From an uncultured Desulfosarcina sp. (lineage in GTDB: Bacteria > Desulfobacterota > Desulfobacteria > Desulfobacterales > Desulfosarcinaceae), in contig CAXXWQ010000003.1 in assembly GCA_963674945.2 (NCBI GenBank), positions 192,001 through 256,000 on the forward strand: a DNA stretch of 64,000 bases, given 5' to 3'. Position numbers and translations under genes: made by a program. Of this stretch, positions 34,383-52,278 are shown one piece after another (within the stretch, counting starts at the first letter, position 1; each line of letters opens with the position of its first letter). A model generated the notes under the pieces. The model searched no databases. It was not told where the DNA came from and worked only from the letters and a program-made list of their open reading frames with translations.

Positions 34383-34385
34383 GGC

Positions 34386-36725: not shown

Positions 36726-37159
36726 TTTACGTTAGCGTTTCATCAGAGAATATTTCGATCCGAAAACAGTCAATGTCGTGTCCGGTCGAGCTGCAGGGTT
36801 TCACGGTACTGATGGTAGGCACAAAAGGTTAATTCTTTTCGCGATCCCTATGATAATAGATTCATATATCGCACGACAATAGAGCGGATAAAAAAGATAG
36901 ATACCTTGATCGTCTATTGATTTCAAGGCAAACATCATCGATCCCATATATTGCAGTCGCCCATTTTGTCCCGAAGCACAGATTAGGAATCACCAACGTA
37001 TTGCAACATCAACTTACCGATCTATTAATTTTAAAACTTACAGTTAGTTATTTTCTTATATGATTTCTTTCTTCCGGGTATTGCGTCGGCCGGATGTTAT
37101 TGGCCATCACCTCAAAGTCAGCGTGACTTGATATTCTTTAAAATTTCGTTATACCCGAA

Positions 37160-37188
37160 TTGACACAGTGCCATGAATGCGATAGAAT
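37160..37188 (+). promoter_or_regulatory. Sigma70-type promoter upstream of the mop operon
   Basis: TTGACA-17 nt-TAGAAT about 350 bp before ATG 37535. Confidence 0.5.
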
Positions 37189-37534
37189 ATTTGCACATGC
37201 TTCAATTCCGAATGAAACTTTGCGAACGTCTCATTCCTTGTTGAATAGCGAGGTTCTTTTTTCATTCTCTTTCTGAGCGGAAACGCATATTCCAAAGTTC
37301 GACGATCGCACCGTATGACTGATGCGGTAAGATCGGCAATTCAAGCGGTTCAAGCGGCCGAGACGGGTTTCGCCTGATTTCAGATATATTCATTCGATTT
37401 TTCCTTTTCCCCATTTGCTCACAGCAATGGTGTTCATGGAGAACGCCAGCAGAGCGGGCTGTGATTTTTTGGATTTCGTCTTGCCACATTGGCATGACAA
37501 TCTTCATGTTTCTACCGGTTGAGGTACGCAATCG

Positions 37535-38560
37535 ATGAAAGCAATTCCCGTTGCCGAGGCCGTCGGTATGGTTTTGGGACATGATGTGACCCGAATCATA
37601 CCTGGAAAAGAAAAAGGTCCCGCCTTTAAAAAAGGCCACATTATCCGTCAGGAGGAGATTAGAGATTTTTTACGTATGGGCAAAGAGAATATTTTTGTTC
37701 TCGATTTGCATCCGGGCATGCTTCACGAAGACGTAGCCGCCGGGCGCATCGCCAGTGCGGCGGCGGGCGCAGGAATACGCCTGGGCGATCCCGCGGAGGG
37801 CCGTGTGAACATGTTCGCCGAAGACGCCGGCTTGCTCAAAATCGATGTTCCTGCCCTCAAACGGATCAACAGCCTCGGTCAGATCGCTTTTTCGACCCTG
37901 CACACCTTTCAGCCCGTGCGTGCCGGCCAGACCGTTGCCGGTACCCGGGTCGTACCGTTGATTATCGACGAGCGGGAAGTCGTCGAGGCCGAGGCGCTCT
38001 GCGCGGCGAATTTCCCCCTGATTCAGGTCAGGCCATACAAAACTTGCCGTGTGGGGGTGGTGACCACCGGCAGCGAAATCTATCATGGCCGCATCAAAGA
38101 CGGTTTCGGACCGGTGGTCGAGAAGAAATTCCAGGCCCTGGGCAGTAGTGTGATCCGCCAGATCCTGGTTTCCGATGACCGGCAGATGACCGTCGACGCC
38201 ATCCATGAACTGATTGCCGACGGTGCCGAGATGATCATGGTCACCGGCGGCATGTCCGTGGATCCCGACGACCAGACGCCGGCCAGCATCCGGGCCGCCG
38301 GTGGCCGGGTGATCGCCTATGGCGCACCGGTTTTTCCGGGGGCCATGTTCATGCTGGCCACAATCGGGGATATCCCCGTGGCCGGTCTGCCGGGATGTGT
38401 CATGTACTATCCCAACAGCATTTTCGATCTGGTGATCCCGCGTCTTCTGGCCAGCGAGCCGGTGACGCGTGAAGATATCGCCGCCCTGGGACACGGTGGG
38501 CTATGCGCCGGATGTGACGTATGCCGCTATCCCGCGTGCGGCTTCGGCAAAGGCTTCTGA
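37535..38560 (+). CDS. Molybdopterin-binding (MoeA/MogA-like) protein with a C-terminal Cys cluster
   Basis: VTTGSE, TGGMSVDPDD, GAPVFPGAM, GLPGC and terminal CAGCDVCRYPAC. Confidence 0.85.
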   Translation: MKAIPVAEAVGMVLGHDVTRIIPGKEKGPAFKKGHIIRQEEIRDFLRMGKENIFVLDLHPGMLHEDVAAGRIASAAAGAGIRLGDPAEGRVNMFAEDAGLLKIDVPALKRINSLGQIAFSTLHTFQPVRAGQTVAGTRVVPLIIDEREVVEAEALCAANFPLIQVRPYKTCRVGVVTTGSEIYHGRIKDGFGPVVEKKFQALGSSVIRQILVSDDRQMTVDAIHELIADGAEMIMVTGGMSVDPDDQTPASIRAAGGRVIAYGAPVFPGAMFMLATIGDIPVAGLPGCVMYYPNSIFDLVIPRLLASEPVTREDIAALGHGGLCAGCDVCRYPACGFGKGF

Positions 38561-38615
38561 TGAAAGGCCCGAACTTCATTGACAGGTTTTTTTATCAAAC
38601 AAAAGGAGAGGAATT

Positions 38616-41336
38616 ATGATTTCACGCAATATCCTGCTCAACGGCACCAACAAGGTTGTGATTGCCTCGGAAAAGGATCGCCTGTCCGATATCCTGCGTG
38701 CCCAGTTGGGGCTGACCGGGACAAAGGTAGGCTGCGGCCAGGGGCAGTGCGGTGCCTGCAACGTCATCATGAACGGCAAGCTGGTACGCTCCTGTATCAC
38801 CAAATTCTCACGGGTCCCCGAGGGGGCGGCCGTGACCACCATCGAAGGCATCGGAACCCCGGGCGGATTGCATCCCCTGCAATTGGCCTGGATCGCCCAC
38901 GGCTGCGCCCAGTGCGGGTTCTGCAGCCCCGGTTTTATCGTCTCGGCCAAGGCCCTTCTGGATGAAAATCCAAGCCCCACCCGCGAAGAAGTCCGTGATT
39001 GGTTCCAGAAAAGCCGCAACGCCTGCCGTTGTACCGGTTACAAGCCCCTGGTGGACGCGGTCATGGACGCCGCCAAGGTACTGCGAAAAGAGATGCCGGC
39101 CGATGAACTCAATTTCAAGATTCCCGCCGACGGACGCATCTGGGGGACCAAATACCCGCGACCGACGGCCATCGCAAAAGTGACCGGCACTCTGGATTAC
39201 GGTGCCGACCTGGGCCTCAAACTTCCCGAGGACCGCCTGAACATGGCGCTGGTGCAGGCCATGATTTCCCATGCCAACATCAACGGCATCGATACCTCCG
39301 AGGCGGAGAAAATGCCCGGCGTGTTCAAGGTCATCACCCACAAGGATGTCCCCGGCAAAAACCGCATCACCGGGCTGATCACCTTTCCTTCCAACAAGGG
39401 AGACGGCTGGGATCGCCCCATCTTGAATGACAGCAAGGTCTTCCAGTACGGCGACGCCATCGCCATTGTCTGTGCCGACACCGAACACCACGCCAAGGAG
39501 GCGGCCGAAAAGGTCAAGGTGGATCTGGAGCCGTTGCCCGAATACATGAGCGCCCCGGCGGCCATGGCCGACGATGCCATCGAGATCCATCCGGGCACGC
39601 CCAATGTCTACTACATTCAGAAAATCGCCAAGGGTGGTGAGATCGCACCGATTTTCGATTCGGCCGACGCGACGGTGGAGGACGACTTCTACGTCGGCCG
39701 CCAGCCACACATGCCCATCGAGCCCGACGTGGGGTTTGCCTATAAAAATGATGACGGCAAACTGGTGATTCACTCCAAGTCCATCGGCCTGCACCTGCAT
39801 GCCTCCATGATCGCTCCCGGCATGGGTGTGGAGCTGGACAACCTGATCATGGTCCAGAATCCGGCCGGCGGTACGTTTGGCTATAAGTTCAGCCCTACCA
39901 TGGAAGCCCTGGTGGGCGTGGCCGCCCTGGTCACCGGACGGCCCTGTTTCCTCAAATACGATTACCACCAGCAACAAACCTACACGGGCAAACGTTCACC
40001 GTTCTTCATGAACATGCGTTTTGCAGCGGACAAGGACGGCAAGCTTCTGGCCATGGAAACCGACTACAGCGTGGACCATGGGCCTTACTCGGAGTTCGGC
40101 GACCTGTTGACCCTGCGTGGTACCCAGTTTATGGGTGCCGGTTACGACATCCCCAATATTCGTGGTGAGGGGCGCACGGTCTGTACCAACCATGCCTGGG
40201 GATCGGCGTTCAGGGCCTATGGTTCCCCCCAGAGCGAGTTCGCCTCGGAAGTACTGATGGACGAACTGGCCGAAAAACTGGGTATGGATCCTTTGGAGAT
40301 CCGCTACAAGAACGTTTACAGGAAAGGTTCCACGACGCCTACCGGTCAGGATCCGGAAGTCTACAGCCTGCCCGAAATGATCGATATCCTGCGTCCAAAA
40401 TACAAGGCGGCCCTGGACAAGGCCAAGGCCGAATCCACCGCCGGGACGAAAAAAGGCGTCGGCATCTCCGTTGGCGTATACGGCTGCGGTCTCGACGGCC
40501 CGGATGCCTCAGAGGCCTGGGTGGAACTCAACGCCGACGATACGATCACCGTCTACTCCTGCTGGGAGGACCACGGCCAGGGCGCCGATGCCGGTGCGCT
40601 GGGATCGGCCTTCGAGACGCTACGGGTGACAGGAATTACGCCGGATCGGGTGAAACTGGTGATGAACGACACGAGCAAGGCTCCCAATTCCGGTCCGGCC
40701 GGCGGCAGCCGCTCCCAGGTCATGACCGGCCAGGCCATTCGAAAGGCCTCCGAAGCGCTGGTGGCGGCCATGAAAAAACCGGACGGCGCTTACCGCAACT
40801 ATGCCGAAATGCAGGCCGATAAAATCCCGGTGCATTATGCAGGGCAGTGGACCGCCCCGGCCACCAACTGCGACGAAAACAGCCAGGGTTCGCCGTTCTC
40901 GGTCTACATGTACGGTGTTTTCATGGCCCAGGTGGCCGTGGAGACGGCCACCGGCAAGACCACGGTGGAGAAAATGACCCTGGTATCCGACATCGGCAAG
41001 ATCAACAACCGCCTGGTGGTGGATGGCCAGATGTACGGTGGCATGGCCCAGGGCATCGGCCTGGCGCTCACAGAGGACTACGAGGATATTAAAAAGCATT
41101 CCACCATGGCCGGTGCGGGATTTCCCTACATCAAGCAGATTCCTGACGACATGGAATTGATTTATGTGGAAACCCCGCGTAAGGACGGCCCATACGGCGC
41201 CGCCGGCGTGGGCGAGATGCCGTTGACCAGCCCCCATGCGGCGATCATTAACGGGATTTACAATGCCTGCGGCGTTCGCATCACCCGATTGCCGGCCTTG
41301 CCGGAAAAGGTGCTGGCCGGATTGCAAGCCAAGTAG
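38616..41336 (+). CDS. mop: Molybdenum aldehyde oxidoreductase, Mop/MOD type
   Basis: 906 aa; two [2Fe-2S] motifs ([14 protein letters not shown]...CRCTGY), no FAD domain, [21 protein letters not shown] and GVGE; layout matches Desulfovibrio Mop as I recall it. Confidence 0.93.
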
Positions 41337-41368
41337 CAGCCTAGCGCGTTAGTGGCGTTTAAAAAGAG

Positions 41369-41405
41369 AAGGCGACCGTTGGCAAAGACTGCCAACGGTC
41401 GCCTT
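41369..41405. terminator. Perfect 16 bp intercistronic hairpin after mop
   Basis: AAGGCGACCGTTGGCA-aagac-TGCCAACGGTCGCCTT; T-tract on the minus strand only. Confidence 0.6.
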
Positions 41406-41425
41406 GACATAACGGGAATACCACC

Positions 41426-43714
41426 ATGGAACAAAGCGAGCTACGCCAATGGGAGCGCCTTTGCATCCAGGACGAACCGGCACCCTGCGCGGCGTCATGC
41501 CCGCTGCATGTGGATGTGCGTGCATTTATCGGGCATGTGGCAAACGGTAACTGGGCCAAGGCAAGAACCGTCTTGAACAAGACCATGCCCCTGGCAGGAA
41601 TTCTGGGTCGCATTTGCGACGCTCCCTGCCAGGCGGCATGTAACCGCGCCAAGATCGGCGGGGCGATTCGCATCGGCGCGTTGGAGCGGGCCATCGTGGC
41701 CCGTGACGACAAGCCCAAACGGGTGCTGCCCCTTCCAAAAAAAACAATCCGGGTGGCGGCGATCGGCAGCGGTTTGAGCAGTCTGACCGTGGCCTGGGAC
41801 CTGGCGCGCAAGGGCTATGACCTCACGGTATTCGAAACCGGTGGTCAAATCGGTGGCGTCTTGGCAAGGCAGTATCCGCAGCAGCTTTCGAAGGAAACGA
41901 TCGAAATTGAAGTCAAACGCATCGGCCAATTGGGTGTGCGCTTTGAAACCCACGCCGTCCTGGACGAAACTGCCATACGGGAATCCTTTGCCGCCGTGTT
42001 TGTGGGCCTGGACGGGATTTCCGATCCCATCTTCGCTTTTACGCCGGCAAGTCCGCTTCCCGAGGGACGCTTTGCCGGGGATACCCGAACGGACGGGGTC
42101 TTCGCCGCCGGCGGTTACGCCTCGCCGGTGTGGCAGGCCGCTTCCGGGCGCTGGTGCGCCACCTCCATGGACCGCTGGCTGCAAAAGGTCTCCATGGACG
42201 CCGGTCGGGAAAACGAGGGGCCTTACGAAACCCGGCTTTTTACCGACCTGGAGGGGATCACCTCGGTGCCGGCGATAGCCGTGGCCGACGCCATCGAAGG
42301 TTATTCACAAGACGAAGCCCGGGCCGAGGCGGGCCGTTGTCTGCAGTGCCAGTGTCTGGAATGTGTCAAGGTTTGTACCTTTCTGGAATCCTTCGGCGCT
42401 TATCCAAGACGATACGCCAGGGAAATATACAATAACGAATCCATCGTCATGGGCGAACGCAAGGCCAATAAGCTGATCAATTCGTGCAGCCTGTGCGGGC
42501 TGTGCGAGGCGGTCTGCCCCAACGATTTCGCCATGCAGGACCTCTGCCTGGCGGCCCGGCAGAGCATGGTCAGCCGGAATAAAATGCCGCCGTCGGCCCA
42601 CGATTTCGCCCTCCAGGACATGGCCTTTTCCCAAAGCGAGGCCTTTTTCATGGCGCGCCACCCCCCCGGCGGCTCCCAAAGCCAATATCTCTTTTTTCCC
42701 GGCTGTCAGCTTTGCGCTTCGGCACCGGGACAGGCAATGCAGGTATATGATTATCTGAGGCAAACGTTGACCGGCGGCGTGGGTCTGATGCTGGGCTGCT
42801 GCGGGGCACCGGCCCATTGGGCAGGTCGCCAAGAGCAGTTTTCCGAGGAACTATACCGCTGGGAAGAGGCCTGGAAAGCCCTTGGCAGACCGCGGCCGGT
42901 AGTTGCCTGCGCGACCTGTCGAAAGGTGCTTACGGACCATCTACCGAAAACCCATCCAATTTCATTGTGGGAAGTGTTCCTGGAAACCGGCATTCCCCAG
43001 TCCGGTCTGTATCGACCCAATGGAATGCTGGCCATCCACGATCCCTGTACGTCGCGCGACGCGCCGGCGGTTCAGGAGGCCGTGCGACAACTGGCCGCAA
43101 TCATCGGCATCGCCGTCGAAGAACTGGATCTGGGACGGCAAAAGACCGAGTGCTGCGGGTTCGGCGGTCTCATGGAAAATGCCAATCCGGCCATGGCAAA
43201 AACCGTGATCGAGGCTCGCGGAAAGCGCAGCAGCAGCGATTATTTGGCATACTGCGCCATGTGCCGGGATGCCCTGGCCGGCGTGGGCAAGCGTACCCTG
43301 CACCTTCTGGACGTTTTGTTTCCGGACCCGAGGGTAGCCGATCCGGCGGCCCGGCCCCGTCCCGGCTGGTCCCGAAGGCGGGAAAACCGTCAGCGGCTGA
43401 AAACCAATTCTTTGCGTGACTTGTGGAAAGAAGCCGTCGAAGATCCAGCGCATGATGAAACGTCGATATCGCTTCGCTTTGCACCGGGTGTGGAAGCGAT
43501 TTTGGAATCTCGACGCATTCTGAAGGAAAACCTGCGCCACGTGATCCGGCATGCCGAAGCCGGTGGCACCCGTTTTCGTCACGGCGAGACCGGCCGCTTT
43601 CTGAGCACATGCAGGGTGGGACATGCCTTCTTCTGGGTGGCTTACGAACCAACCGGCGACGGCTACCTGGTTCATAACGCCTATTCCCATCGCATGAAGG
43701 TACTGGGGCCATGA
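41426..43714 (+). CDS. Flavin/Fe-S oxidoreductase: GltD-like N-terminus, 4Fe-4S dicluster and CCG domains
   Basis: CIQDEPAPCAASCP, GRICDAPC, degenerate Rossmann motif AIGSGLSS, CLQCQCLECVKVC, CSLCGLCEAVCP, FFPGC, GCCG, HDPC and CCGFGG. Confidence 0.85.
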   Translation: MEQSELRQWERLCIQDEPAPCAASCPLHVDVRAFIGHVANGNWAKARTVLNKTMPLAGILGRICDAPCQAACNRAKIGGAIRIGALERAIVARDDKPKRVLPLPKKTIRVAAIGSGLSSLTVAWDLARKGYDLTVFETGGQIGGVLARQYPQQLSKETIEIEVKRIGQLGVRFETHAVLDETAIRESFAAVFVGLDGISDPIFAFTPASPLPEGRFAGDTRTDGVFAAGGYASPVWQAASGRWCATSMDRWLQKVSMDAGRENEGPYETRLFTDLEGITSVPAIAVADAIEGYSQDEARAEAGRCLQCQCLECVKVCTFLESFGAYPRRYAREIYNNESIVMGERKANKLINSCSLCGLCEAVCPNDFAMQDLCLAARQSMVSRNKMPPSAHDFALQDMAFSQSEAFFMARHPPGGSQSQYLFFPGCQLCASAPGQAMQVYDYLRQTLTGGVGLMLGCCGAPAHWAGRQEQFSEELYRWEEAWKALGRPRPVVACATCRKVLTDHLPKTHPISLWEVFLETGIPQSGLYRPNGMLAIHDPCTSRDAPAVQEAVRQLAAIIGIAVEELDLGRQKTECCGFGGLMENANPAMAKTVIEARGKRSSSDYLAYCAMCRDALAGVGKRTLHLLDVLFPDPRVADPAARPRPGWSRRRENRQRLKTNSLRDLWKEAVEDPAHDETSISLRFAPGVEAILESRRILKENLRHVIRHAEAGGTRFRHGETGRFLSTCRVGHAFFWVAYEPTGDGYLVHNAYSHRMKVLGP

Positions 43715-43923
43715 AAAACGACGATATCCGGCCCGAAGATTTGAAATGGCGCTGCGAGACCTGCCAGCGCGAACTGGTGGTGGGGCCGGTGACGGTGACC
43801 TACATGGATAATCGGTTTACCACGGAGCTGCCTTATTGCCCGACGTGTAAAGCCGTGCTGATTACCGATCGGGTGGCATTGGGGAAGATGGCGGAAGTGG
43901 AGCAGATCCTTGAAGACAAATAA
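43711..43923 (+). CDS. Small CxxC...CxxC metal-binding or redox protein (DVU_1557-like)
   Basis: WRCETC and YCPTC, ends LEDK; ATGA overlap with the upstream gene. Confidence 0.8.
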   Translation: MKNDDIRPEDLKWRCETCQRELVVGPVTVTYMDNRFTTELPYCPTCKAVLITDRVALGKMAEVEQILEDK

Positions 43924-43924
43924 A

Positions 43925-44632
43925 ATGGATCGACCCTACGAATCCGCCGCGTTACGTGCCGTCACAGGGCCGACGATCCGGCCGGGCGGTTTGGCGCTCA
44001 CGCATCGGGCGGTCGAAGTCTGTGGCTTGGGTTCCGGTGCACGGGTGTTGGACGTAGGCTGCGGAACAGGTGCCACGGCAGCCTGTTTGGAAGATCATCA
44101 TGACGCCTCCGTGGTGGGCATGGATCTTTCGTCCACCCTGCTTTCCGACGCGATCCGGCATTACCCTGAAATGGCGGCGGTCAGGGCCGACGCCATGGTG
44201 CTTCCATTTACGGCAGGAGCATTCGATGCGGTATTTGCCGAGTGTGTCTGCTCCCTGCTGCCCGATGCAGCCGCAGCGATAGAGGGCTTTTTCCGGATAT
44301 TGCGGCCGGGCGGCCATCTGGTGGTGGCGGACCTGTATTGGCGGACATGGAATTCGGCGGCGATTCGGCCCAAAGTCTCCTTTTACGGCTGCCTGGCGGG
44401 CGCCGTTGACCGGCACACCATGATCCGGCGCATCGAAACCGCCGGGTTCAAAATCCATTTATGGGAAGATCACTCGGATTTTCTCAAACAGCTTGCCGCC
44501 CAGCTCGTATGGGCCGGTATTCCGCTCAGCAACTGGTTGGATGGCGATTGTGCATCAAGGACCTGCCGATACGGCCGGCGTCCCGGATACTGTGTAATCG
44601 TTGCTCGCAAGAAAGAAAAAACCCATGGATGA
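43925..44632 (+). CDS. Class I SAM-dependent methyltransferase (DVU_1556-like)
   Basis: RPGGLALT, VLDVGCGTG, FDAVFAEC and LRPGG. Confidence 0.88.
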   Translation: MDRPYESAALRAVTGPTIRPGGLALTHRAVEVCGLGSGARVLDVGCGTGATAACLEDHHDASVVGMDLSSTLLSDAIRHYPEMAAVRADAMVLPFTAGAFDAVFAECVCSLLPDAAAAIEGFFRILRPGGHLVVADLYWRTWNSAAIRPKVSFYGCLAGAVDRHTMIRRIETAGFKIHLWEDHSDFLKQLAAQLVWAGIPLSNWLDGDCASRTCRYGRRPGYCVIVARKKEKTHG

Positions 44633-45071
44633 TTACCAGATTCAAATGTTGAAGATGGCAGGTACCGGTTACTCTTGCAGCCAGATTCTCATCCGAATGG
44701 CCTTGGAAACACGGGGCGAGGAGAATCCGGCCCTGGTACGCACCATGGCCGGGCTGGCCTACGGTTGCGGCAGTGGGAGGGGAAGCTGCGGTGCCCTGAC
44801 CGGCGGTTGCTGCCTTCTGGCCCTGTATGCCGGTAAGGGGGCCGATGCGGAGTCGGAATCGGATCAATTCCCTTTGATGCTCGATGAAATGAGCGCGTGG
44901 TTTGAAGAAAGGGTGGGCGCCCAATACGGCGGCACCACGTGCCAGATCATCACCGGCGAGGACGGCCCCGCAGCATCACGCAAGCGCTGCGGACAGATCG
45001 TGGCCGAAACCTTCGCCAAAGCCATGACAATCCTGACCACCCATGGTTTCGACCCTTATGACGCCGACTGA
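44625..45071 (+). CDS. C-GCAxxG-C-C family putative redox protein (DVU_1555-like)
   Basis: YSCSQ, SCGALTGG, TTC and KRC Cys pattern. Confidence 0.85.
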   Translation: MDDYQIQMLKMAGTGYSCSQILIRMALETRGEENPALVRTMAGLAYGCGSGRGSCGALTGGCCLLALYAGKGADAESESDQFPLMLDEMSAWFEERVGAQYGGTTCQIITGEDGPAASRKRCGQIVAETFAKAMTILTTHGFDPYDAD

Positions 45072-46422
45072 ACAGACCACCCAAAGCCTCTGCCCTGTCT
45101 GCCTAAAGCGGATCGACGCCCGGCGCACGATTCGTGGCGATCGGGTCTTTCTGGAAAAAATCTGCCCCGATCATGGCAGCTTCAGCGTACGCATCTGGGA
45201 CGGAGAGCCTGGATTTTCCACCTGGCAGCGACCCAAAACCCCCACTCATCCGGCTATCCCCGGTCATGCCGTGGAAAAGGGCTGCCCTTTCGATTGTGGA
45301 TTGTGCCCGGAGCATCGCCAGCGCTCCTGCACGGTAATTTTGGAGGTTACCGACCGCTGTAACATGGACTGTCCGGTCTGTTACGCCGATTCAAGAAGCG
45401 CCGGCGACGATCCGCCCATTGCGACAATCGAAGGCTGGTTCAAGGCGGCGTTCCACGTCAGTGCCGGCAGCAACATCCAGCTTTCCGGCGGCGAGCCGAC
45501 CCTTCGGGACGATCTTCCCCGCATCGTTGCCATGGGGCGCGAGGCGGGTTTCGATTTTATCCAGATCAACACCAACGGGCTGCGGCTGGCCAGTGACGAG
45601 GCGTTCCTTCGCGACCTCAAAGATGCCGGGTTGTCCTCGGTCTTCCTGCAATTTGACGGGACACGTGATGCCGTCTACGAAAAACTTCGCGGCCGGCCGC
45701 TTTTGGCAACAAAAAAAACCGCTATCGAGAAGTGCGGACGGTACGGTGTCGGCGTTGTGCTGGTTCCCACCCTGGTGCCGGGCATCAACGATGACGACAT
45801 CGGCAATCTGATGCGCCTGGCCGCAGACCATGTGCCGGTAGTGCGATCCATTCACTTTCAGCCGGTCAGCTATTTCGGTCGTTTTTTTCATTCTCCGACC
45901 GATGGCGATCGCATCACCCTACCGCAACTCATGCGCCTGATCGAAGAAGAGACTGATGGCGTCTTCAAAGCCTCCGCGTTTTCGCCGCCGGGCTGTGAGA
46001 ACAGCCTTTGCAGTTTCAGCGCCAGCTATCTGGTCATGCCGGACGGCGATGTGCGGGCCGTGGGTCGCTCCGCGGGCACCTGCTGTCCCAAACCGATCCC
46101 TGCCGAAGTCGGTGCTGCCGCCGCTATCGATTTCGTATCCCGGCAGTGGCGGGCGCCGCAGTCATGCTGCGGAACACTTTCTCCCCGATCGTCCGGCAGC
46201 GGCTCAAACAGTCCGGATACCATGGATCTGGATGTTTTTATCCAGCGCGCCCGCACTTACCTGCTCTCCGTGTCGGCCATGGCCTTTCAGGACGTTTGGA
46301 ACCTGGACCTGGAGCGGGTGCGCGACTGCTGCATTCACGTCATGGCACCGGATACACGGCTGATTCCCTTTTGTCTTTACAATCTGACCAGTCAGACCGG
46401 TGAAAGGCTCTACCGCCCATGA
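45058..46422 (+). CDS. Radical SAM protein, TrsS-like
   Basis: N-terminal SLCPVC/KICPDHG and CPFDCGLCPEH, CNMDCPVC, LSGGEPT, NTNG, and C-terminal CCIH...IPFC. Confidence 0.88.
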   Translation: MTPTEQTTQSLCPVCLKRIDARRTIRGDRVFLEKICPDHGSFSVRIWDGEPGFSTWQRPKTPTHPAIPGHAVEKGCPFDCGLCPEHRQRSCTVILEVTDRCNMDCPVCYADSRSAGDDPPIATIEGWFKAAFHVSAGSNIQLSGGEPTLRDDLPRIVAMGREAGFDFIQINTNGLRLASDEAFLRDLKDAGLSSVFLQFDGTRDAVYEKLRGRPLLATKKTAIEKCGRYGVGVVLVPTLVPGINDDDIGNLMRLAADHVPVVRSIHFQPVSYFGRFFHSPTDGDRITLPQLMRLIEEETDGVFKASAFSPPGCENSLCSFSASYLVMPDGDVRAVGRSAGTCCPKPIPAEVGAAAAIDFVSRQWRAPQSCCGTLSPRSSGSGSNSPDTMDLDVFIQRARTYLLSVSAMAFQDVWNLDLERVRDCCIHVMAPDTRLIPFCLYNLTSQTGERLYRP

Positions 46423-47768
46423 CGACGGTTCCCATCACACCGTTGGATGACTGGATTCGCCGCAAGATCGGCATGGACGGGGATCGATCCTTGACCAGGA
46501 CCGCCCTGGCAGAATACCAGCTTCAGGCCCTCAACCGTACCATCGACCTTGCCCGGAGCAATAGTTCCTTTTACCGGACGCATCTGGCCGGCCTTCCCGA
46601 TTCGTCCCTACCCGACCTGGATCGCTTGCGCGAACTGCCGTTTACCACAACCGATGATATCCTCCGGGACCCACTCGCCCTGGTCTGCGTTTCCCAAAGT
46701 GACATCGCCCGGGTGATCACCATGGAGAGTTCCGGCACCACGGGGCGGCCGAAGCGAATCTTCTTTACCGACGCCGATCTGGAATTGACTATCGATTTTT
46801 TTCACCACGGCATGTCCACACTGGTGGAACCGGGCCAGCGGGTACTGATTCTGTTGCCCGGGGCGCTTCCGGACAGCGTCGGTGATCTGTTGACCAGGGC
46901 ACTTGACCGCATGGCAGTGACCGGCATCGTCCACGGACCTGTACACGATCCTGCCGCCGCCGTCCATGCGGCGATCACAAATAACGTCGACAGCCTGGTG
47001 GGCATCCCCGTCCAGGTACTGGCGATGGCTTGCGTGGATGAGGGAGATCGCCTGTCCGGTCTGATCCGGACCGTTCTGCTCAGCACCGACTATGTTCCCG
47101 ATGCAATCGTTCGGCGCATCCAAGCGGCGTGGAAATGCCGGGTCTTCAAACATTACGGCATGACCGAAATGGGCCTTGGCGGTGGTGTCGAGTGTGCGGC
47201 CCTTTCGGGCTATCACGTGAGAGAATCCGACCTGTTGGTGGAGATTGTCGATCCTCAGACAGGTTCACCGGTGCCGGGCGGCAGTATCGGTGAACTGGTA
47301 TTCACGACCCTGACCCGGCGGGGCATGCCCCTGATTCGATACCGAACCGGCGACCTGGCCGCCCTCGATACCGGTGCCTGCATTTGTGGAACAACGCTTG
47401 CGTCCCTTGCCGTCGTCATGGGGCGGGAAACGGGGGCGGTTGACCTCGGCGGGCATCGGCTTCACCTCGCCGAGATAGACGACGTGCTGTTCAATGTTGA
47501 ATCCATCCTGGATTTTTCGGTTCGGATCGACACGTCCCATGCCGTGGACAGACTCGATCTGACGATCAGCCGGCGGCCGGAGGTATCTTTGGAAGCGGTA
47601 ACGGCATCGGTAGAAAAGGCTCTTTCGAAAATACCCGCCATATCAAATGCCAAGGCGGCCAAGCGACTGAAACTTCGGGTAAAACCGGCAAAAAGCGCTA
47701 CGGCAGCCTCCTCCGGCAGTACCAAACGGCAAATGCACGACCACCGAAAAAGGACGCAAAAACCATGA
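46419..47768 (+). CDS. PaaK-like AMP-dependent (CoA) ligase (DVU_1553-like)
   Basis: SSGTTGRPK, HYGMTE, MPLIRYRTGD and GR. Confidence 0.88.
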   Translation: MTTVPITPLDDWIRRKIGMDGDRSLTRTALAEYQLQALNRTIDLARSNSSFYRTHLAGLPDSSLPDLDRLRELPFTTTDDILRDPLALVCVSQSDIARVITMESSGTTGRPKRIFFTDADLELTIDFFHHGMSTLVEPGQRVLILLPGALPDSVGDLLTRALDRMAVTGIVHGPVHDPAAAVHAAITNNVDSLVGIPVQVLAMACVDEGDRLSGLIRTVLLSTDYVPDAIVRRIQAAWKCRVFKHYGMTEMGLGGGVECAALSGYHVRESDLLVEIVDPQTGSPVPGGSIGELVFTTLTRRGMPLIRYRTGDLAALDTGACICGTTLASLAVVMGRETGAVDLGGHRLHLAEIDDVLFNVESILDFSVRIDTSHAVDRLDLTISRRPEVSLEAVTASVEKALSKIPAISNAKAAKRLKLRVKPAKSATAASSGSTKRQMHDHRKRTQKP

Positions 47769-48823
47769 ATACCATTTTTGACACGGCCTATGCTTATCTT
47801 GAAGCGGACACGCCTTTTGTCCTGGCCACCATCGTCACGCATGCCGGATCCACGCCGCGTGAATCTGGCAGCAAGATGATCATCACATCAAAGGGCAACG
47901 GCATCGGTACCATTGGCGGCGGCCTTCTGGAGGCCCGGGCCATGTCGCGGGCCGTTGAGTTGATGGGATGCCGTGCTTCGGCCCTCATCTCTTTTGATCT
48001 TACCGCCCGGACGGTTTCGACCATGGACATGATTTGCGGCGGTAAGGCCGAAGTGCTGCTCGACTATATCGCGGTCACACCAGAAAATCGTGCTGTGTTC
48101 GGGGCCTGGTCGAAGATGCTGGCCGCCGGCGGTAAGGGATGCCTGCTCACCCGCGTGTTGGCGCCTGTCGAGGATGGGGAAACCCTCCGGGTGGATCATG
48201 CCCTGGCCAACGCTCGGGGAGAGATCGAAGTCGGTTCGTTTGCGCCGTCAGCCGGACTATTGGACCAACTGGCCGCGTCCGCCACGTCACCGGAGATGCG
48301 ATCCATCTCCATCGATGGCGGATTCGTTGTGCTGGAACCGGCCCTTCGCGTCTGCACGGCTTACATTTTCGGCGCCGGCCACGTCTCACGACCGACGGCT
48401 CAGATGGCTGCCCTGGTCGGTTTCCAGGTAAATGTGGCCGACGACAGGGATGAATACGCCAATGCCCGGCGGTTTCCCGAGGCCCATGAGATCCGCGTCC
48501 TGAAGGACTTCGTTCACTGCATGCCCGACAAGGATCTGGGACCGGACGACTTCGTGGTCATTCTCACTCGGGGGCATCTTCACGACAAGACCGTACTGGC
48601 CCAAGCCCTTCGGACCGAAGCCGGTTACGTCGGCATGATCGGCAGCCGGAAGAAACGGGACGCCATCTACCGCATGCTGCAGGATGAAAGCTTCACACAG
48701 GCTGATATTGATCGGGTGCACGCGCCCATTGGCTTGAACATCGGCGCCGAAACCCCGGAGGAAATCGCCCTGAGCATCGTCAGCGAAATGGTCGCCGTTC
48801 GGGCAGGGCATAAATTGAGGTAG
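47765..48823 (+). CDS. XdhC/CoxI family Moco insertion chaperone
   Basis: GSTPR, GTIGGG, MICGG, FGAGHV, TRGH, GMIGSRKK and PIGL...ETPEEIA. Confidence 0.92.
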   Translation: MNTIFDTAYAYLEADTPFVLATIVTHAGSTPRESGSKMIITSKGNGIGTIGGGLLEARAMSRAVELMGCRASALISFDLTARTVSTMDMICGGKAEVLLDYIAVTPENRAVFGAWSKMLAAGGKGCLLTRVLAPVEDGETLRVDHALANARGEIEVGSFAPSAGLLDQLAASATSPEMRSISIDGGFVVLEPALRVCTAYIFGAGHVSRPTAQMAALVGFQVNVADDRDEYANARRFPEAHEIRVLKDFVHCMPDKDLGPDDFVVILTRGHLHDKTVLAQALRTEAGYVGMIGSRKKRDAIYRMLQDESFTQADIDRVHAPIGLNIGAETPEEIALSIVSEMVAVRAGHKLR

Positions 48824-48824
48824 C

Positions 48825-50018
48825 GTGGCGGGAAGAAATACAATGCAGAATCGACCAAATCTTTCGGCAGTCGTTCTGGCCGCCGGGCTCTCCACCCGCA
48901 TGAAACGGTTCAAGCCCTTGCTGAAGTTAGGGAAACGGCGTGTGGTAGAACGAGTCGTCTTTTCGTACCGGAATGCCGGCATCGAGGATATCGTCGTGGT
49001 CGTGGGGTATCGAGGGGAAGAGGTGCGCCGGGTGCTTGCACCGCTCGGTGTGCAATGTGCGGACAATCCCGATTACCAAAAGGGAATGTTATCATCGGTT
49101 TTGGCCGGTGTCCGGACTCTGCCGTTGGATTGCCGCGCCTTCTTTCTTCATCCGGCGGATATCCCGTTGGTGCGTCCCCAGACCGTGGTTCGACTGGCGG
49201 AAACGTTTCAGGCAAGCCACAGCACTGTTGTGTACCCGACATTTAACGGACGACGGGGGCACCCCCCCTTGATTGATGCCGGTGTGGTGCCTCGACTGCT
49301 GCGGTGGTCAGGGCGTGGCGGGATGCGGGCCTTTCTCGGCGGATACGATGCCGCCAGTCTCGATTTGGCGGTTGCGGATGAAGCCGTCGGATTGGATATG
49401 GACACGCCGGCCGACTACCGGCGGATGCTGGATCGGCTTCAACACGAGGGTGTACCATCCAGAGATGAATGCCGGATGCTGATGGAAGGTATAATCGCGC
49501 TGCCTCCGGTGATCCAGGCCCATAGCCGCGCGGTAGCCAGGATTGCCCGGCAAGTGGCGATGGCCGTGAAAAAAGCGGGCATCCGGATCGATGTCGATCA
49601 GGTATACGCGGCGGCCCTGCTTCACGATATCGCCAGACTTGAGGAAGATCACGCAAGTGCCGGTGCACGGCTGCTCGAGCGGCACGGCTTTTTCCGCATT
49701 GCCCCTGCCGTGGCCACCCACATGGCACTTGATGTGGAAGACGGCCGTCCCATCGACGTGGCACAGATCGTCTATCTGGCCGACAAGCTGGTCCAAGGAG
49801 ATCGATCAGTTGGTTTGAATCAACGGTTTTCTCGGGCCATGGAGAAATTCGGTCAGGACCCTGCAACCGCTTCCGCCATTGAACACCGGCTTGACACGGC
49901 CCGTCGCATTAAAAAGCGAGTGGAGGCGATCACAGAGCATTCCCTTGAAAGCTTGATCCATGGTGCCGGCGAAAAGGAGGGGACGGATATTGACATCGGA
50001 AGAATCAAACCCGAGTAA
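48825..50018 (+). CDS. MocA/MobA-like nucleotidyltransferase fused to an HD domain (DVU_1551-like)
   Basis: LAAGLSTRM, DIP, GHPP and DMDTPADY, then AHS...LLHDI...H...LADK. The start may be ATG 48843. Confidence 0.87.
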   Translation: MAGRNTMQNRPNLSAVVLAAGLSTRMKRFKPLLKLGKRRVVERVVFSYRNAGIEDIVVVVGYRGEEVRRVLAPLGVQCADNPDYQKGMLSSVLAGVRTLPLDCRAFFLHPADIPLVRPQTVVRLAETFQASHSTVVYPTFNGRRGHPPLIDAGVVPRLLRWSGRGGMRAFLGGYDAASLDLAVADEAVGLDMDTPADYRRMLDRLQHEGVPSRDECRMLMEGIIALPPVIQAHSRAVARIARQVAMAVKKAGIRIDVDQVYAAALLHDIARLEEDHASAGARLLERHGFFRIAPAVATHMALDVEDGRPIDVAQIVYLADKLVQGDRSVGLNQRFSRAMEKFGQDPATASAIEHRLDTARRIKKRVEAITEHSLESLIHGAGEKEGTDIDIGRIKPE

Positions 50019-50634
50019 AACCGAGGATCATCTCATCTATCTGTTGCGACATGGCGAAATCGAGAATCCGGGCGGGAAGCGTTGTTATATTGGCCGTCAG
50101 GATCTGAAACTCAATGAAAAGGGCCGAAGCCAGGCATGCAGTTGGGCCGAGCAATTCGCCGACGTCGAACTGGAGTCAATTTACTGCAGTCCTCTGCGTC
50201 GCTGCCTGGAAACGGCCGAAATTATCGGCACACGATGCGGTCTGACGCCGGAGCCTGTCCGAGCGATGCAGGAGATCAACCTGGGGACGTGGGAAGGGCA
50301 GCGCATGGAGACCATCCGGACCCGACATCCCAAAGACTTTTCCCGGCGCGGCGAAGAGCTCGCCGATTTTCGCATACCCGGCGGGGAATCCTTTTCGGAT
50401 CTGCAACAGCGTTCGTGGTCGGCCTTCGAGGAACTGGCCAGTCGTCACCGGCGGCCGGTCCTGATGGTGACCCATGCCGGCGTAATACGCGTAGTGTTAT
50501 GCCGGCTACTGGGCATTCCGCTGCAGCACCTCTTTCGTATCGGTCAAACGTACGCCGGTCTGACGCTGGTCCACCGGGGGCCGGCCGGCTATCGCCTGCA
50601 ATCGCTCAACCTGACGAACCTTCCGGCCCTCTGA
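49990..50634 (+). CDS. Histidine phosphatase (CobC/phosphoglycerate mutase family)
   Basis: LLRHGE, SPLRRC, EINLGTWEG and VTHAG; TTG start after AGGAGG. Confidence 0.88.
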   Translation: MTSEESNPSKTEDHLIYLLRHGEIENPGGKRCYIGRQDLKLNEKGRSQACSWAEQFADVELESIYCSPLRRCLETAEIIGTRCGLTPEPVRAMQEINLGTWEGQRMETIRTRHPKDFSRRGEELADFRIPGGESFSDLQQRSWSAFEELASRHRRPVLMVTHAGVIRVVLCRLLGIPLQHLFRIGQTYAGLTLVHRGPAGYRLQSLNLTNLPAL

Positions 50635-50693
50635 CCGGCCGCTGCATCAAACCGATGTACGGCAGCCTGCTTTATGGAAAACTGCTATTTTCG

Positions 50694-52142
50694 TCAGTCT
50701 TCGATAAAAGTATATACTGTTTTCGTTTTCAGATAGGCGTCTACGCCTGCCCAGCCATATTCGAGCCCCCAACCCGATTGCTTGTACCCACCAAAGGGCA
50801 TGGCCGGATCGGCTACCAGCTGGCAATTGAGCCAGACCATACCGGCTTCCACCCGCTTGGCCAGTCTATGTGCCCGTGCACTGTCCTGGGTCCAAACGGC
50901 GCCCGCAAGCCCGTAAGGCGTATCATTGGCCATGGCAATCGCCTCTTCCTCCTCATCAAACGGAACGACGGCGACAACCGGCCCGAAGATCTCCTCGCGC
51001 ATCAGTCGCATGTCCTCGCGAACATTGGTGAGCACCGCAGGTTCCACGAAATAACCGCGCCGATCCAGTCTCTTTCCACCCGTGACCACCTCCACACCCT
51101 GCTCTTTTCCTTCTTCGATAAAGCCCATGACACGTTTCAGCTGTGATTCACTGATGATTGGACCAATGTGGGCGCCCTCATCCTGTGGCCCGCCAAGCTG
51201 CAACGTTTTCGCGAAGTTCGCCAGTCCTTCCACGACCTGTTCGTATATGCCTCGCTGGGCATAAATTCGCGAACCGCAGACACATCCCTGCCCGGACCCG
51301 GCAAAAATACCCACTCCGGCCCCGAGTATGGTCTTGGATAAATCCGCGTCGTCGAAAATCAGAACGGGTGACTTGCCCCCCAGCTCGAGGGTCAGCCGTT
51401 TCAGGTTGCCTGCCGATGCCAGAACAAGTTTTTTTCCAACCTCCACCGAACCGGTAAATGAGAGTTTGTCCACACCTGGATGTGCGGATAGCGCCGCACC
51501 GGTGATGCTGCCGGAACCATTTACCAGATTGACGACACCGTCGGGGACACCCGCTTCTTTCAGTAAATCCATCAATTTCATCGCGGAAAGAGGCGTCAAG
51601 GATGATGGTTTCAACACGCAGGAACAGCCCGCAGCCAGCGCCGGGGCCACCTTTGACAAAGCAACGTACAGCGGCCCGTTCCAGGAAACGATCAGACCGG
51701 CCACTCCGTATGGCTCCTTCAATGTATAGGCATGAAATTGAGACGTTGTGCCGGTAATTCCACCCGTCATCCGGATATCATTTGAGATTCCATAGAGTTT
51801 TGTGCACCAGCCGGCGAAATATCGCACGAACTCCGAACTCGTTGAAATGAGAATGTTAAGCTGCATCTCATTCATTCCCGTATTGCGGGATTCGATTGCC
51901 GCGAGTTCAGCCACATCGCGCTCGAGGATATCGGCCAACCGCCACAGAATCTTGCCTTTCTCGGATGCAGGCTTGAGTCTCCATATACCGGATTCGAAAG
52001 TCTCTCTTGCACGCGCAACAGCCTCGTCGACAGCGTTCTGCCCACCTTCAGGAATCTCAGTGATTTGTTCTTCCGTCGAGGGATCAATGACCGGAATCAT
52101 CTTTGTGCTGCTGTTCTTTTCTCCCGCAATTTGATTCGACAT
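50694..52142 (-). CDS. NAD(P)-dependent aldehyde dehydrogenase
   Basis: WNGP, LKPS, FTGS, catalytic Glu in LELGGKSP, catalytic Cys in GQGCVCGS, EEIFGP and PFGGYKQSG; start 52142 after AGGAG. Confidence 0.95.
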   Translation of the reverse strand: MSNQIAGEKNSSTKMIPVIDPSTEEQITEIPEGGQNAVDEAVARARETFESGIWRLKPASEKGKILWRLADILERDVAELAAIESRNTGMNEMQLNILISTSSEFVRYFAGWCTKLYGISNDIRMTGGITGTTSQFHAYTLKEPYGVAGLIVSWNGPLYVALSKVAPALAAGCSCVLKPSSLTPLSAMKLMDLLKEAGVPDGVVNLVNGSGSITGAALSAHPGVDKLSFTGSVEVGKKLVLASAGNLKRLTLELGGKSPVLIFDDADLSKTILGAGVGIFAGSGQGCVCGSRIYAQRGIYEQVVEGLANFAKTLQLGGPQDEGAHIGPIISESQLKRVMGFIEEGKEQGVEVVTGGKRLDRRGYFVEPAVLTNVREDMRLMREEIFGPVVAVVPFDEEEEAIAMANDTPYGLAGAVWTQDSARAHRLAKRVEAGMVWLNCQLVADPAMPFGGYKQSGWGLEYGWAGVDAYLKTKTVYTFIED

Positions 52143-52278
52143 GATTTTCTCCTTCTTGCAGTTTTGAAGCATTGTTAAAAGGCGAAGTCATCTACCTACA
52201 ACACCGTATATTAGAACGACGACGAATTCAGATATCAGGATCAAAAGTCATTGTTGTCGTAACAGGCAAACGCAATCA

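Follow-up and report, generated by a model that had tools for sequence, protein, structure and literature searches.

Mop, the molybdopterin aldehyde oxidoreductase, provided the earliest structure of the xanthine oxidase family. The enzymes closest to the Mop studied here, D. gigas AOR (1SIJ/1VLB) and D. desulfuricans MOD (1DGJ), are related to it at the ortholog level and are flavin-free, with Mo-MCD and two [2Fe-2S] clusters. Native D. gigas AOR contains plain MCD at 1.28 A, with an oxo and not a sulfido ligand (PMC10223205, PMC3877041), and its activity is tied to the redox state of the dithiolene (PMC3877041). The enzyme passes electrons to flavodoxin in vitro, and the electron acceptor of Mop is still termed 'putative' (PMC10223205); in the relevant literature passages flavodoxin is the only proposed partner and the adjacent dicluster-CCG protein is unmentioned.

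In C. ljungdahlii, Mop is encoded in two tandem four-gene sets together with an FAD-CCG, a four-Cys and a C_GCAxxG_C_C protein, next to methyltransferase, radical SAM and XdhC genes, and the cluster genes are induced together approximately 3-fold on H2/CO2 and syngas (PMC5640608). The corresponding D. vulgaris genes are DVU_1551-1559, and the radical SAM enzyme TrsS is credited in PMC13188914 to Haft and Tolstoy 2025. NCBIfam already has models for the cluster, and part of it has been published (PMC5640608), which the initial annotation of the locus had missed.

Gene content of the mop locus

We analyzed a window of 64,000 nucleotides, the whole stretch of DNA presented above. All eleven open reading frames within 37535..50634 are intact and lie on the + strand (Table 1). 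The gap between the moeA-like gene and mop is 55 bp and that between mop and the first following gene 89 bp, and the nine genes 3' of mop are joined at -4, +1, -8, -29, -4, -4, +1 and -59 bp, where the +1 junctions were computed with ATG at 43925 and GTG at 48825 as starts. Nine of the eleven proteins score above the cut-off of dedicated NCBIfam models (NF045645, NF045646, NF045663-NF045669). The initial annotation, which had described mop, a MoeA-like gene and nine tightly spaced genes resembling the D. vulgaris set, is borne out, as are its family labels except for one discussed below. The order mop, dicluster protein, DVU_1557, methyltransferase, C-GCAxxG protein, TrsS and ligase is the conserved order of the DVU_1551-1559/TrsS neighbourhood. 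Judged by its sequence, the cluster is an intact copy of this already catalogued neighbourhood of anaerobic bacteria, with the same gene content and with Cys instead of Sec in TrsS.

Table 1. Features of the mop locus, with positions in the window.
Feature	Position	Strand	Model or remark
Candidate sigma70-like promoter match TTGACA-17-TAGAAT	37160..37188	+	11/12; ~350 bp 5' of first gene
MoeA-like molybdopterin-binding protein, 341 aa, Mop-associated module	37535..38560	+	PF00994
Mop molybdopterin aldehyde oxidoreductase, 906 aa	38616..41336	+	NF045668, 1706 bits, cut-off 1100
17-bp stem-loop in the mop-to-dicluster gap	41369..41405	.	sequence scan
Dicluster/CCG oxidoreductase, 762 aa	41426..43714	+	NF045663, 1003 bits
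D90 domain, ~residues 670-762 of the 762-aa protein	43433..43714	+	predicted BrnT/RelE-like fold, weak DUF4258 match
DVU_1557 zinc-ribbon protein, 70 aa	43711..43923	+	NF045645; two CxxC pairs, LEDK end
DVU_1556 SAM methyltransferase	43910..44632	+	NF045667; start TTG 43910 or ATG 43925
DVU_1555 C-GCAxxG-C-C protein, 148 aa	44625..45071	+	NF045669, PF09719
TrsS radical SAM enzyme, 459 aa	45043..46422	+	NF045646, 667 bits; tetraether-synthase (GDGT-MAS/Tes) fold
DVU_1553 PaaK-like adenylating ligase, 449 aa	46419..47768	+	NF045666
XdhC-family maturation factor, Mop-associated module	47765..48823	+	NF045664
MocA-type nucleotidyltransferase-HD fusion (DVU_1551 family), Mop-associated module	48825..50018	+	NF045665, PF12804 + PF01966
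Histidine phosphatase, CobC-like, Mop-associated module	49960..50634	+	PF00300; TIGR03162 barely over cut-off

Mop aligns with D. gigas AOR over its full length (1480 bits; E=0 against 1SIJ/1VLB and 1DGJ), and domain and family models describe a single chain of two [2Fe-2S] domains and Mo-binding domains that has no flavin domain. In the MoeA-like protein, a C-terminal CxxCxxCxxxxC motif is invariant (C324/327/330/335 in 51/51). The stem-loop behind mop has its T-run on the - strand only, which makes an mRNA stabilising or processing hairpin the more likely role, and a search of 34800-51000 found no Rfam family, including the Moco riboswitch.

Distribution of the TrsS cassette

The locus is made up of three layers: Mop with MCD-maturation genes, the 762-aa CCG partner, and a separable TrsS cassette of six parts (D90 domain, DVU_1557, C-GCAxxG protein, methyltransferase, TrsS and ligase). 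TrsS and DVU_1557 co-occur in an identical set of 28 of 301 genomes, of which 20 contain Mop (19 over the cut-off and one split by a contig end) and eight are Mop-less. Conversely, TrsS is present in 19/19 and 29/32 Mop genomes. We further examined 80 named Mop loci and scored for cassette genes those 51 that have 9 kb or more of downstream sequence, finding the dicluster protein and DVU_1557 in 50 each, the C-GCAxxG protein in 48, the ligase in 47, and the methyltransferase and TrsS in 44 each. The link between Mop and the cassette is not due to chance. The idea that genomes lacking TrsS beside mop can do without it was rejected, as 5/5 of them hold TrsS elsewhere. The XdhC, MocA-HD, phosphatase and MoeA-like genes occur at 0/11 loci lacking mop and at 43-55 of 89 loci with it; all four behave as Mop-specific maturation genes. 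Independence of the accessory genes from mop, which the initial annotation had named as evidence against its reading, is thus observed in part, for the TrsS cassette, which is present in Mop-less genomes.

In the comparison sets, loci are numbered L and genomes G. At three loci (L167, L169, L174) the cassette lies directly 3' of HdrA-like, MvhD, Flx-like and dicluster-CCG genes, and other Mop-less cassettes adjoin W-AOR, DMSO-reductase-family enzymes, and BadFG or RACo ATPases. Two loci (L102/L123) encode two tandem Mop, each with its own dicluster protein and DVU_1557, and have one TrsS and one ligase in common. Tandem TrsS paralogs are found at L167, L168, L174, L172 and L185. No dicluster-CCG homolog of the family of the 762-aa protein was detected in three genomes with the cassette (G151, G221, G654), and neither D90 nor DVU_1557 was detected at two loci with TrsS, ligase and methyltransferase (L193, L198), in the first of which a Sir2 deacylase lies between ligase and TrsS. 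The only recurring extra neighbours, labelled by eye, are genes for molybdate/ABC transporters, regulators, formate dehydrogenase and alcohol dehydrogenase.

Since the cassette is present in Mop-less genomes and loci, it does not appear to be a Mop-cofactor pathway, and a role in supplying a modified Mop cofactor or an S/Se ligand, as suggested earlier, or in repairing the dithiolene, is quite unlikely. Such a role would fit the rarity of Mop without TrsS, the influence of the dithiolene redox state on D. gigas AOR (PMC3877041), and the other pterin enzymes among many Mop-less neighbours, with a W-AOR-family gene in 5/5 Mop-less genomes tested. It is opposed by the position of the cassette behind non-pterin Hdr/Flx operons and by its presence in genomes lacking the enzyme family altogether, as G118 (100% complete) and G151 (97%) gave no Mop-family or xanthine-oxidase-family match at 1e-30. 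A deep branch of the TrsS tree is also Mop-less (support 0.87), the native D. gigas enzyme carries the plain oxo form of MCD (PMC10223205, PMC3877041), and the GDGT-MAS pocket was judged unfit for pterins (PMC9433317). D. gigas itself is absent, among the matches listed, from the 80 named Mop loci and from 120 TrsS homologs.

Proteins of the cassette and the CCG partner

The 762-aa protein consists of a GltD-type N-terminal Fe-S domain, a Rossmann remnant, a 4Fe-4S dicluster, two complete CCG motifs and the C-terminal D90. All ten CCG cysteines are kept in 79/79 aligned dicluster proteins. The NAD(P)H domain is missing, with ~165 residues absent relative to paralogs from the same genome and a spacing of 123-184 aa between the two FAD-binding parts in 79/79 proteins; of the FAD motifs, GxG is kept, the ribose-binding Glu is found in 25/79 and the Asp of the C-terminal GD in 8/79. 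Because of this deletion and of the degenerate FAD motifs, the flavin of the earlier label 'flavin/Fe-S/CCG' is doubtful. The invariance of the CCG cysteines together with the deletion of the NAD(P)H exit indicates that another electron sink is needed. From their motifs and the Hdr/Flx context, the two CCG sites are predicted to perform HdrB/HdrD-type disulfide reduction. We know of no disulfide substrate for many Hdr-like CCG proteins of non-methanogens.

D90 itself has no Pfam match; at other loci it stands alone as a gene or is joined to DVU_1557. Its model resembles BrnT (Z 6.0, rmsd 2.2), a weak DUF4258 match is found in 4/50 sequences, and a natural D90-1557 fusion is modelled with pTM 0.85. 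In DVU_1557 four Cys are invariant, and matches at weak E-values were obtained to the YgiT finger (13/46), to MqsA (17/46) and to LysW (4/46, from which no kinship is claimed). A direct comparison found D90 and DVU_1557 to be mutually unrelated. In sequence and model, the two appear to resemble a BrnT/MqsR-MqsA toxin-antitoxin pair, a resemblance to RelE/BrnT and MqsA that is weak (Foldseek E 0.056; Z 6.0 and 2.5; HMM E 2e-3 and 3e-5).

A terminal Lys ends DVU_1557 in 165/170 copies. Fusion proteins combine DVU_1557 with the dicluster protein at 13 loci and, at L008, L130 and L208, with D90 alone; in all of them DVU_1557 comes last. The copies without the Lys are four intact ones (AKME, AKMG, KKRA) and one truncated one; both copies of G118 lack it, though this genome has a ligase. 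Covariation of Lys loss with ligase loss was rejected, because the G118 ligase scores over the cut-off elsewhere in the genome. That D90 and DVU_1557 continue to function as toxin and antitoxin, which would stabilise or regulate the operon and take no part in its chemistry, is suggested by the predicted BrnT/RelE/MqsR fold of the one and the MqsA-finger match of the other. We regard this as most improbable, considering that D90 is normally fused to an oxidoreductase, that 16 loci or more have it joined to DVU_1557, that DVU_1557 has no DNA-binding domain, and that its genome profile is that of TrsS and unlike that of a mobile pair.

TrsS matches the GDGT-MAS structure 7TOL at E 1e-87 (model TM 0.77) and keeps the overall Tes fold, the four metal-site motifs and the labile Met, the equivalent of Met439 being M413 in 161/172 sequences. 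C323 (172/172) and C429 and C444 (168/172) are, from the alignment, the putative ligands of the C-terminal cluster, which in GDGT-MAS forms a C-S bond with the substrate (PMC9433317). C96, present in 169/172, is specific to TrsS. The protein encoded here is the Cys form of a family that includes selenocysteine members, and three relatives have an in-frame TGA at C96 or C318. A complex prediction for TrsS and the D90-1557 fusion of L008 scored 0.47, with a control at 0.41, and was counted neither way.

The fold match over the whole length of TrsS raises the possibility that it cross-links or thiolates membrane acyl chains, with the ligase activating a fatty acid, as bacterial Tes homologs are proposed makers of membrane-spanning lipids (PMC8941075). 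This is very unlikely, as TrsS reaches only 344 bits against the Tes cut-off of 450 (NF045702), the true Tes-family members of the same phylum group in a clade of their own, which lacks the cassette, and the ligase is a PaaK-type, aryl-acid enzyme. TrsS also lacks, in a comparison of model and structure, the helical insertion of Tes-family members, and the position of Tyr459 is non-Tyr in at least 77/78 TrsS; Tyr459 variants of GDGT-MAS remain active (PMC9433317), so the latter absence marks divergence only.

The ligase matches PaaK (4R1L, E 7e-38) and conserves the P-loop, YGxTE and four Zn-site residues, scoring 118 bits against a PaaK model cut-off of 646; H245 is family-specific (74/75), and phenylacetate specificity is not supported. 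PaaK-family ligases usually form CoA thioesters rather than protein amides. The C-GCAxxG protein has C18/55/106/122 in 82/82 sequences, and a sequence search found no solved relative. In the methyltransferase, C112 (78/78) and C161 (71/78) fall in a stretch aligned to ArsM structures, where they may correspond to the arsenic-binding Cys pair, and the closest non-self NCBIfam matches are ArsM models (69 bits, cut-off 263).

These ArsM-like features, together with C96 and C318 of TrsS, which are Sec in some relatives, would suit a pathway that starts with methylation of As(III) or Se by the methyltransferase; TrsS would then attach an alkyl radical to the metalloid via the extra Cys/Sec to yield an organoarsenic or organoselenium acid. 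Such a pathway is unlikely, however: among PDB structures the methyltransferase best matches N-methyltransferases, the recurring neighbour families include neither an ars gene nor an arsenic transporter or efflux pump, and detoxification would hardly account for a near-obligate association with Mop in two phyla.

A possible thiol redox arm and its relation to known systems

Tentatively, we propose that the separable cassette builds a protein-bound, lipoate-like thiol redox arm and that the Hdr-like CCG partner reduces this arm with electrons from Mop. The 762-aa protein with a docked DVU_1557 finger can, with fair support, be regarded as the dedicated electron acceptor of Mop, and electrons would plausibly pass from the Fe-S centres of Mop through the clusters of this protein to its two non-cubane CCG sites with thiol/disulfide chemistry. 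Among the options of the initial annotation, a redox carrier dedicated to the CCG protein fits best. The ligase would adenylate a small carboxylic acid and attach it to the Lys at the end of DVU_1557. TrsS would then take a hydrogen from the tethered acyl group, trap the resulting radical on a C-terminal cluster sulfide, and release a thiol rather than join two chains. Trimming of the product or resupply of sulfur might fall to the methyltransferase and the C-GCAxxG protein. As a methyltransferase caps and does not create a redox-active thiol, its role fits the scheme poorly.

The thiol arm is favoured by the portability of the cassette, the Hdr/Flx context, the presence of one DVU_1557 per Mop, the CCG invariance and deleted NAD(P)H exit, the fusions and terminal Lys of DVU_1557, the TrsS fold, the tandem TrsS paralogs and the Sir2 deacylase of L193. 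Against it stand the Lys-less DVU_1557, the CoA habit of PaaK enzymes, cassettes without dicluster-CCG protein or DVU_1557, and the flavodoxin acceptor used in vitro; the conserved acidic tail of DVU_1557 could also merely dock on D90 in an antitoxin-like manner. Our literature search found no paper testing any step of the scheme, and the main text of the D. vulgaris fitness paper does not mention DVU15xx.

Electron flow could also be reversed, which we consider possible but doubtful. Mop or another low-potential donor would power the pathway, DVU_1557 would act as a rubredoxin-like iron protein that carries electrons from the dicluster protein to TrsS, which together with the ligase and the methyltransferase would make a diffusible sulfur or methylthio molecule from an acyl-CoA, perhaps of the acid produced by Mop. 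This would agree with the CoA esters of PaaK-type ligases, the four invariant Cys of DVU_1557, the joint induction on gas in C. ljungdahlii (PMC5640608) and the ability of the Mop, W-AOR, HdrA/Flx, BadFG and RACo neighbours to give low-potential electrons. It leaves unexplained the strictly terminal Lys and the DVU_1557 of each Mop paralog beside a single common TrsS, and no exporter or dedicated consumer recurs among the neighbouring genes.

The locus is known; copies without Mop, the Hdr/Flx setting, the loss of the NAD(P)H domain and a near-invariant terminal Lys make the vague notion of an 'accessory operon' more specific. The proposal of a thiol arm, if true, would give a first function to a branch of the tetraether-synthase family that is widespread in bacteria. 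In its fullest form, it describes an undescribed lipoate-like cofactor of several anaerobe phyla, in which a PaaK-type ligase loads, and a tetraether-synthase homolog sulfurates, a thiol arm on the C-terminal Lys of a toxin-antitoxin-derived zinc ribbon, this being both the missing disulfide substrate of the Hdr-like CCG class and the acceptor route of Mop; that all of this holds is rather improbable.

The four-gene unit described in C. ljungdahlii is also found here, but where the authors of that work suggest a membrane quinone/phenazine-like carrier and an FAD site (PMC5640608), the protein encoded here has no NAD(P)H domain and its FAD motifs have degenerated. TrsS shares with GDGT-MAS/Tes (7TOL, 7TOM) the rubredoxin, N-terminal, radical SAM and C-terminal cluster motifs and the labile Met, and differs in the extra C96 and C318 and in its redox-operon setting. 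D90 and DVU_1557 have the same order as BrnT, MqsR-MqsA and DUF4258-YgiT-finger pairs, toxin-like protein first and finger second, with a weak likeness to the N-terminal finger of MqsA; unlike these pairs they occur joined to one another or to an oxidoreductase, lack an HTH and have a strictly conserved terminus. The proposed scheme would resemble, in its logic alone, the assembly of lipoate on LbpA for sHdr by sLpl(AB) and LipS1/LipS2 (PMC10332631), with an Hdr-like enzyme, a small carrier, a ligase and radical SAM sulfur insertion, and the tandem TrsS paralogs recall the LipS1/LipS2 pair. The parts are unrelated: no cluster protein matched a lipoyl-domain, Lpl, LipS or LipA family in NCBIfam or Pfam, and the cassette has a zinc ribbon in place of the lipoyl domain, a PaaK-type ligase in place of Lpl and a Tes-type enzyme in place of LipS.

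The mop locus and its surroundings

The eleven ORFs of the initial annotation were confirmed, on the + strand, with all junctions among the nine genes downstream of mop overlapping or 1 bp long, and its family labels agree with the Pfam/NCBIfam assignments. Gaps of 55 bp (moeA-mop) and 89 bp (mop to the next gene) flank mop, and GC content across the cluster is 0.59-0.60 against 0.51 genome-wide. Nine proteins score over the cut-offs of dedicated NCBIfam models (NF045668 for Mop, NF045646 for TrsS, and NF045663, NF045645, NF045667, NF045669, NF045666, NF045664 and NF045665). The locus is a real, intact copy of an already catalogued system. Its three-layer architecture is secure, comprising Mop with its maturation genes (XdhC, MocA-HD, phosphatase, MoeA-like), the 762-aa dicluster/CCG protein, and a cassette of six parts: D90 (the last 90 residues of the dicluster protein), the 70-aa zinc-ribbon protein DVU_1557, a C-GCAxxG protein, a methyltransferase, TrsS and a ligase.

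Haft and Tolstoy 2025 reportedly place TrsS next to a molybdopterin aldehyde oxidoreductase. TrsS also appears, credited to those authors, in a table of a review (PMC13188914). For C. ljungdahlii, PMC5640608 describes two tandem Mop/CCG/four-Cys/C-GCAxxG sets; entries in its supplement give the neighbouring genes for the methyltransferase, radical SAM protein and XdhC as ~3-fold up on H2/CO2 and syngas, and the Mop and CCG genes of the second set as not up. A literature search with most subscription journals outside its scope found no publication testing the cassette or tying it to DUF4258/YgiT. New here are the occurrence of the cassette independently of Mop, its Hdr/Flx surroundings, the lack of an NAD(P)H domain in the dicluster protein, a suggested descent of D90-DVU_1557 from something like a toxin-antitoxin pair, and the terminal lysine.

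Around the cluster, GC is ~0.47 at the transposase, and the XdhC/MocA genes could also serve the xanthine-oxidase-family enzyme. Aldehyde-oxidising enzymes of three kinds lie within 20 kb, if the tungsten AOR label, assigned by eye, is accepted.

Coordinates of the cluster and of associated features (G000:C3, contig of the same genome; L numbers, compared loci)
Feature	Position	Strand	Remark
mop cluster, eleven ORFs	window 37535-50634	+	
Xanthine-oxidase-family enzyme, two subunits	window 32238-34847	-	714 aa large, 153 aa 2Fe-2S; divergently upstream
IS1380-family transposase	window 35257-36627	-	intact; just upstream of cluster
NAD-dependent aldehyde dehydrogenase	window 50694-52172	-	after cluster
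616-aa ORF	window 54160-56010	+	after cluster; tungsten AOR-like by eye
Second XdhC paralog	G000:C3:1748714-1749766		66% identity
tRNA-Sec genes (two)	G000:C3:572702 and 722697		called by ARAGORN
Second, more distant TrsS-like gene and neighbours	G000:C3:2610000-2620930		split in two frames
Mop-partner fusion	L047:10001-13813		1271 aa, in frame
GNAT acetyltransferases	L002:8623-9123; L199:5938-6378		just upstream of W-AOR-linked cassettes

Distribution of the cassette with and without Mop

From 567 Mop loci the best 80 were taken; downstream sequence of 9 kb or more was available for 51 of them. These 51 contain the dicluster protein (50), DVU_1557 (50), the C-GCAxxG protein (48), the ligase (47), the methyltransferase (44), TrsS (44), XdhC (36), MoeA-like (32), MocA-HD (30) and the phosphatase (24, a count partly constrained by the 10-kb flank). 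Among the taxa named in record titles are Desulfobacterota, Synergistaceae, Anaerolineae, Thermoleophilia and Desulfosporosinus. TrsS was found elsewhere in the genome in 5/5 tested genomes without it at the mop locus. In the window's phylum (301 genomes) Mop exceeded the cut-off in 19, all with TrsS; in a second phylum (351 genomes) Mop occurred in 32, TrsS in 30 (450 bits or more, a threshold chosen at a score gap) and both in 29. Because genome counts include kin and are not independent, no test statistic is given.

In its distribution, Mop needs the cassette, and not the reverse. DVU_1557 occurs in 28 of the 301 genomes, exactly the 28 with TrsS (27 over the cut-off, plus G084, where it is split in two pieces), and eight of these have no Mop. 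The first Mop count scored two candidates per genome; full re-searches of four of the eight and of a fifth genome, G654, gave none over the Mop cut-off, and neither G118 (100% complete) nor G151 (97%) had a Mop match at 1e-30. The full-length dicluster protein was absent from all five, as was its CCG part from G151, G221 and G654. XdhC, MocA-HD, phosphatase and MoeA-like were found in 0/11 loci that carry TrsS and DVU_1557 without mop (including two contig-edge cases and one with mop elsewhere), and in 52, 55, 43 and 47, respectively, of 89 loci with mop. The initial annotation had tied the whole gene set to mop; in neighbourhood profiling this stands for these four genes, found only at mop loci among those compared, and fails for TrsS and DVU_1557.

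Neighbours of Mop-less cassettes include W-AOR (L002, L004, L130, L199, L204), DMSO-reductase-family enzymes (L008, L130, L208), a hydroxyacyl-CoA dehydratase with BadFG ATPase (L015), RACo (L023) and, directly upstream in L167, L169 and L174, an HdrA-like, MvhD, Flx-like, dicluster-CCG operon, named from Pfam domains and gene order. In a FastTree phylogeny of 202 sequences, the sister group of the Mop-rich clade (support 0.90) is a Mop-less branch (0.87), and the W-AOR and DMSO-reductase cases are nested at three places within the Mop-rich clade; we claim no order of events.

Two variants of Mop were also observed. In L047 a truncated Mop is fused to the CCG-D90 half of its partner, and TrsS persists in the locus only as a C-terminal remnant; the fusion could be decay or misassembly. 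A divergent, longer Mop subgroup (L137-L139, L143, L145, L147-L153; ~1150-1200 bits, 950-990 aa) has its own dicluster and DVU_1557 subfamilies, with the D90-DVU_1557 pair repeated in two loci.

The dicluster protein and the cassette proteins

Residues 19-200 and 220-317 of the dicluster protein align with the start and end of same-genome GltD-like paralogs; the ~165-residue domain between them, which carries the NAD(P)H motif in the paralogs, is missing, as it is in all 79 homologs. Its FAD motifs are degenerate, and all ten cysteines of its two CCG motifs are invariant. From these three features we infer that it is probably an Fe-S wire that terminates in HdrB/D-type sites. In L102 and L123 there are two Mop genes in tandem, each with its own dicluster protein and DVU_1557; a single TrsS and a single ligase are common to both.

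D90 has no Pfam match. In Mop-less loci it is encoded separately, and in L008, L130 and L208 it is fused to DVU_1557. In 13 loci DVU_1557 is joined to the entire dicluster protein (of 14 long ORFs, that of L085 is in a different frame and is not counted). In the L008 fusion model (pLDDT 91, pTM 0.85), the best structural match of D90 is BrnT, a weak one (Foldseek E 0.056; Z 6.0, rmsd 2.2), followed by a series of RelE-family folds including MqsR, and the DVU_1557 finger weakly resembles the MqsA N-terminal domain (Z 2.5). Weak HMM matches link D90 to DUF4258 (4/50; Atlas 0.86, a lead only) and DVU_1557 to the YgiT finger (13/46) and MqsA (17/46). Individually these matches are weak; their agreement suggests a toxin-antitoxin-like ancestry. 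DVU_1557 ends in Lys in 165/170 copies, mostly as LEDK; the exceptions are four intact copies and one truncated.

TrsS has the GDGT-MAS fold (model pLDDT 91; TM 0.77) and scores under the Tes cut-off; unlike Tes members, it has neither Tyr459 nor their helical insertion. Its rubredoxin, N-terminal and radical SAM motifs are conserved without exception (78/78). Among 172 strong homologs, C323 is found in all, C429 and C444 in 168, family-specific C96 in 169 and M413 (Met439 equivalent) in 161. Three relatives have an in-frame TGA at C96 or C318; ARAGORN calls tRNA-Sec genes in the genome, though the window's TrsS has Cys. Since GDGT-MAS holds the radical of its substrate by bonding carbon to a sulfur of the C-terminal cluster (PMC9433317), TrsS could plausibly end its reaction by inserting sulfur. 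The second TrsS-like gene of this genome is flanked by a CCG gene and a molybdopterin oxidoreductase, near MoeA-like, MoaA, ModE-like and FmdE-like genes (most labelled by eye). L033 is arranged similarly and has a Mo enzyme-GNAT-DUF2064 fusion.

In the PaaK-like ligase the adenylation and Zn motifs are intact, and H245 is specific to the family. Short ligases (~350-380 aa; L011, L013, L016, L020-L022, L024-L026, L054, L055, L088) are missing the greater part of the C-terminal domain, and most of them keep, by eye, a Lys-containing tail. The methyltransferase has C112 in 78/78 and C161 in 71/78 sequences; its best non-self NCBIfam matches are ArsM models, far under cut-off, and its best PDB matches N-methyltransferases. 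Four Cys are invariant in the C-GCAxxG protein, for which a sequence search gave no solved relative.

A candidate role for the cassette

The initial annotation had offered a modified Mop cofactor as one possible product. We consider this unlikely because D. gigas AOR, whose own neighbourhood is not confirmed to hold the cassette, has plain MCD at 1.28 A (PMC10223205) and an oxo ligand (PMC3877041). We tentatively favour the view, itself somewhat doubtful, that the cassette builds a protein-bound thiol carrier. The ligase would load an acid onto the terminal Lys of DVU_1557, TrsS would then insert sulfur, and the CCG sites would cycle the thiol arm using electrons from Mop or another donor. Such a carrier fits the two TrsS paralogs per cassette in L167, L168, L174, L172, L185, L193 and L198, and the Sir2 deacylase between ligase and second TrsS in L193. 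Against it stand the DVU_1557 copies without terminal Lys, cassettes without a CCG partner, L193 and L198, in which DVU_1557 was not detected in the locus, the CoA chemistry usual for PaaK ligases, and the poor fit of a methyltransferase. The proposed thiol arm on DVU_1557 would be akin to the lipoate on LbpA that serves sHdr (PMC10332631).
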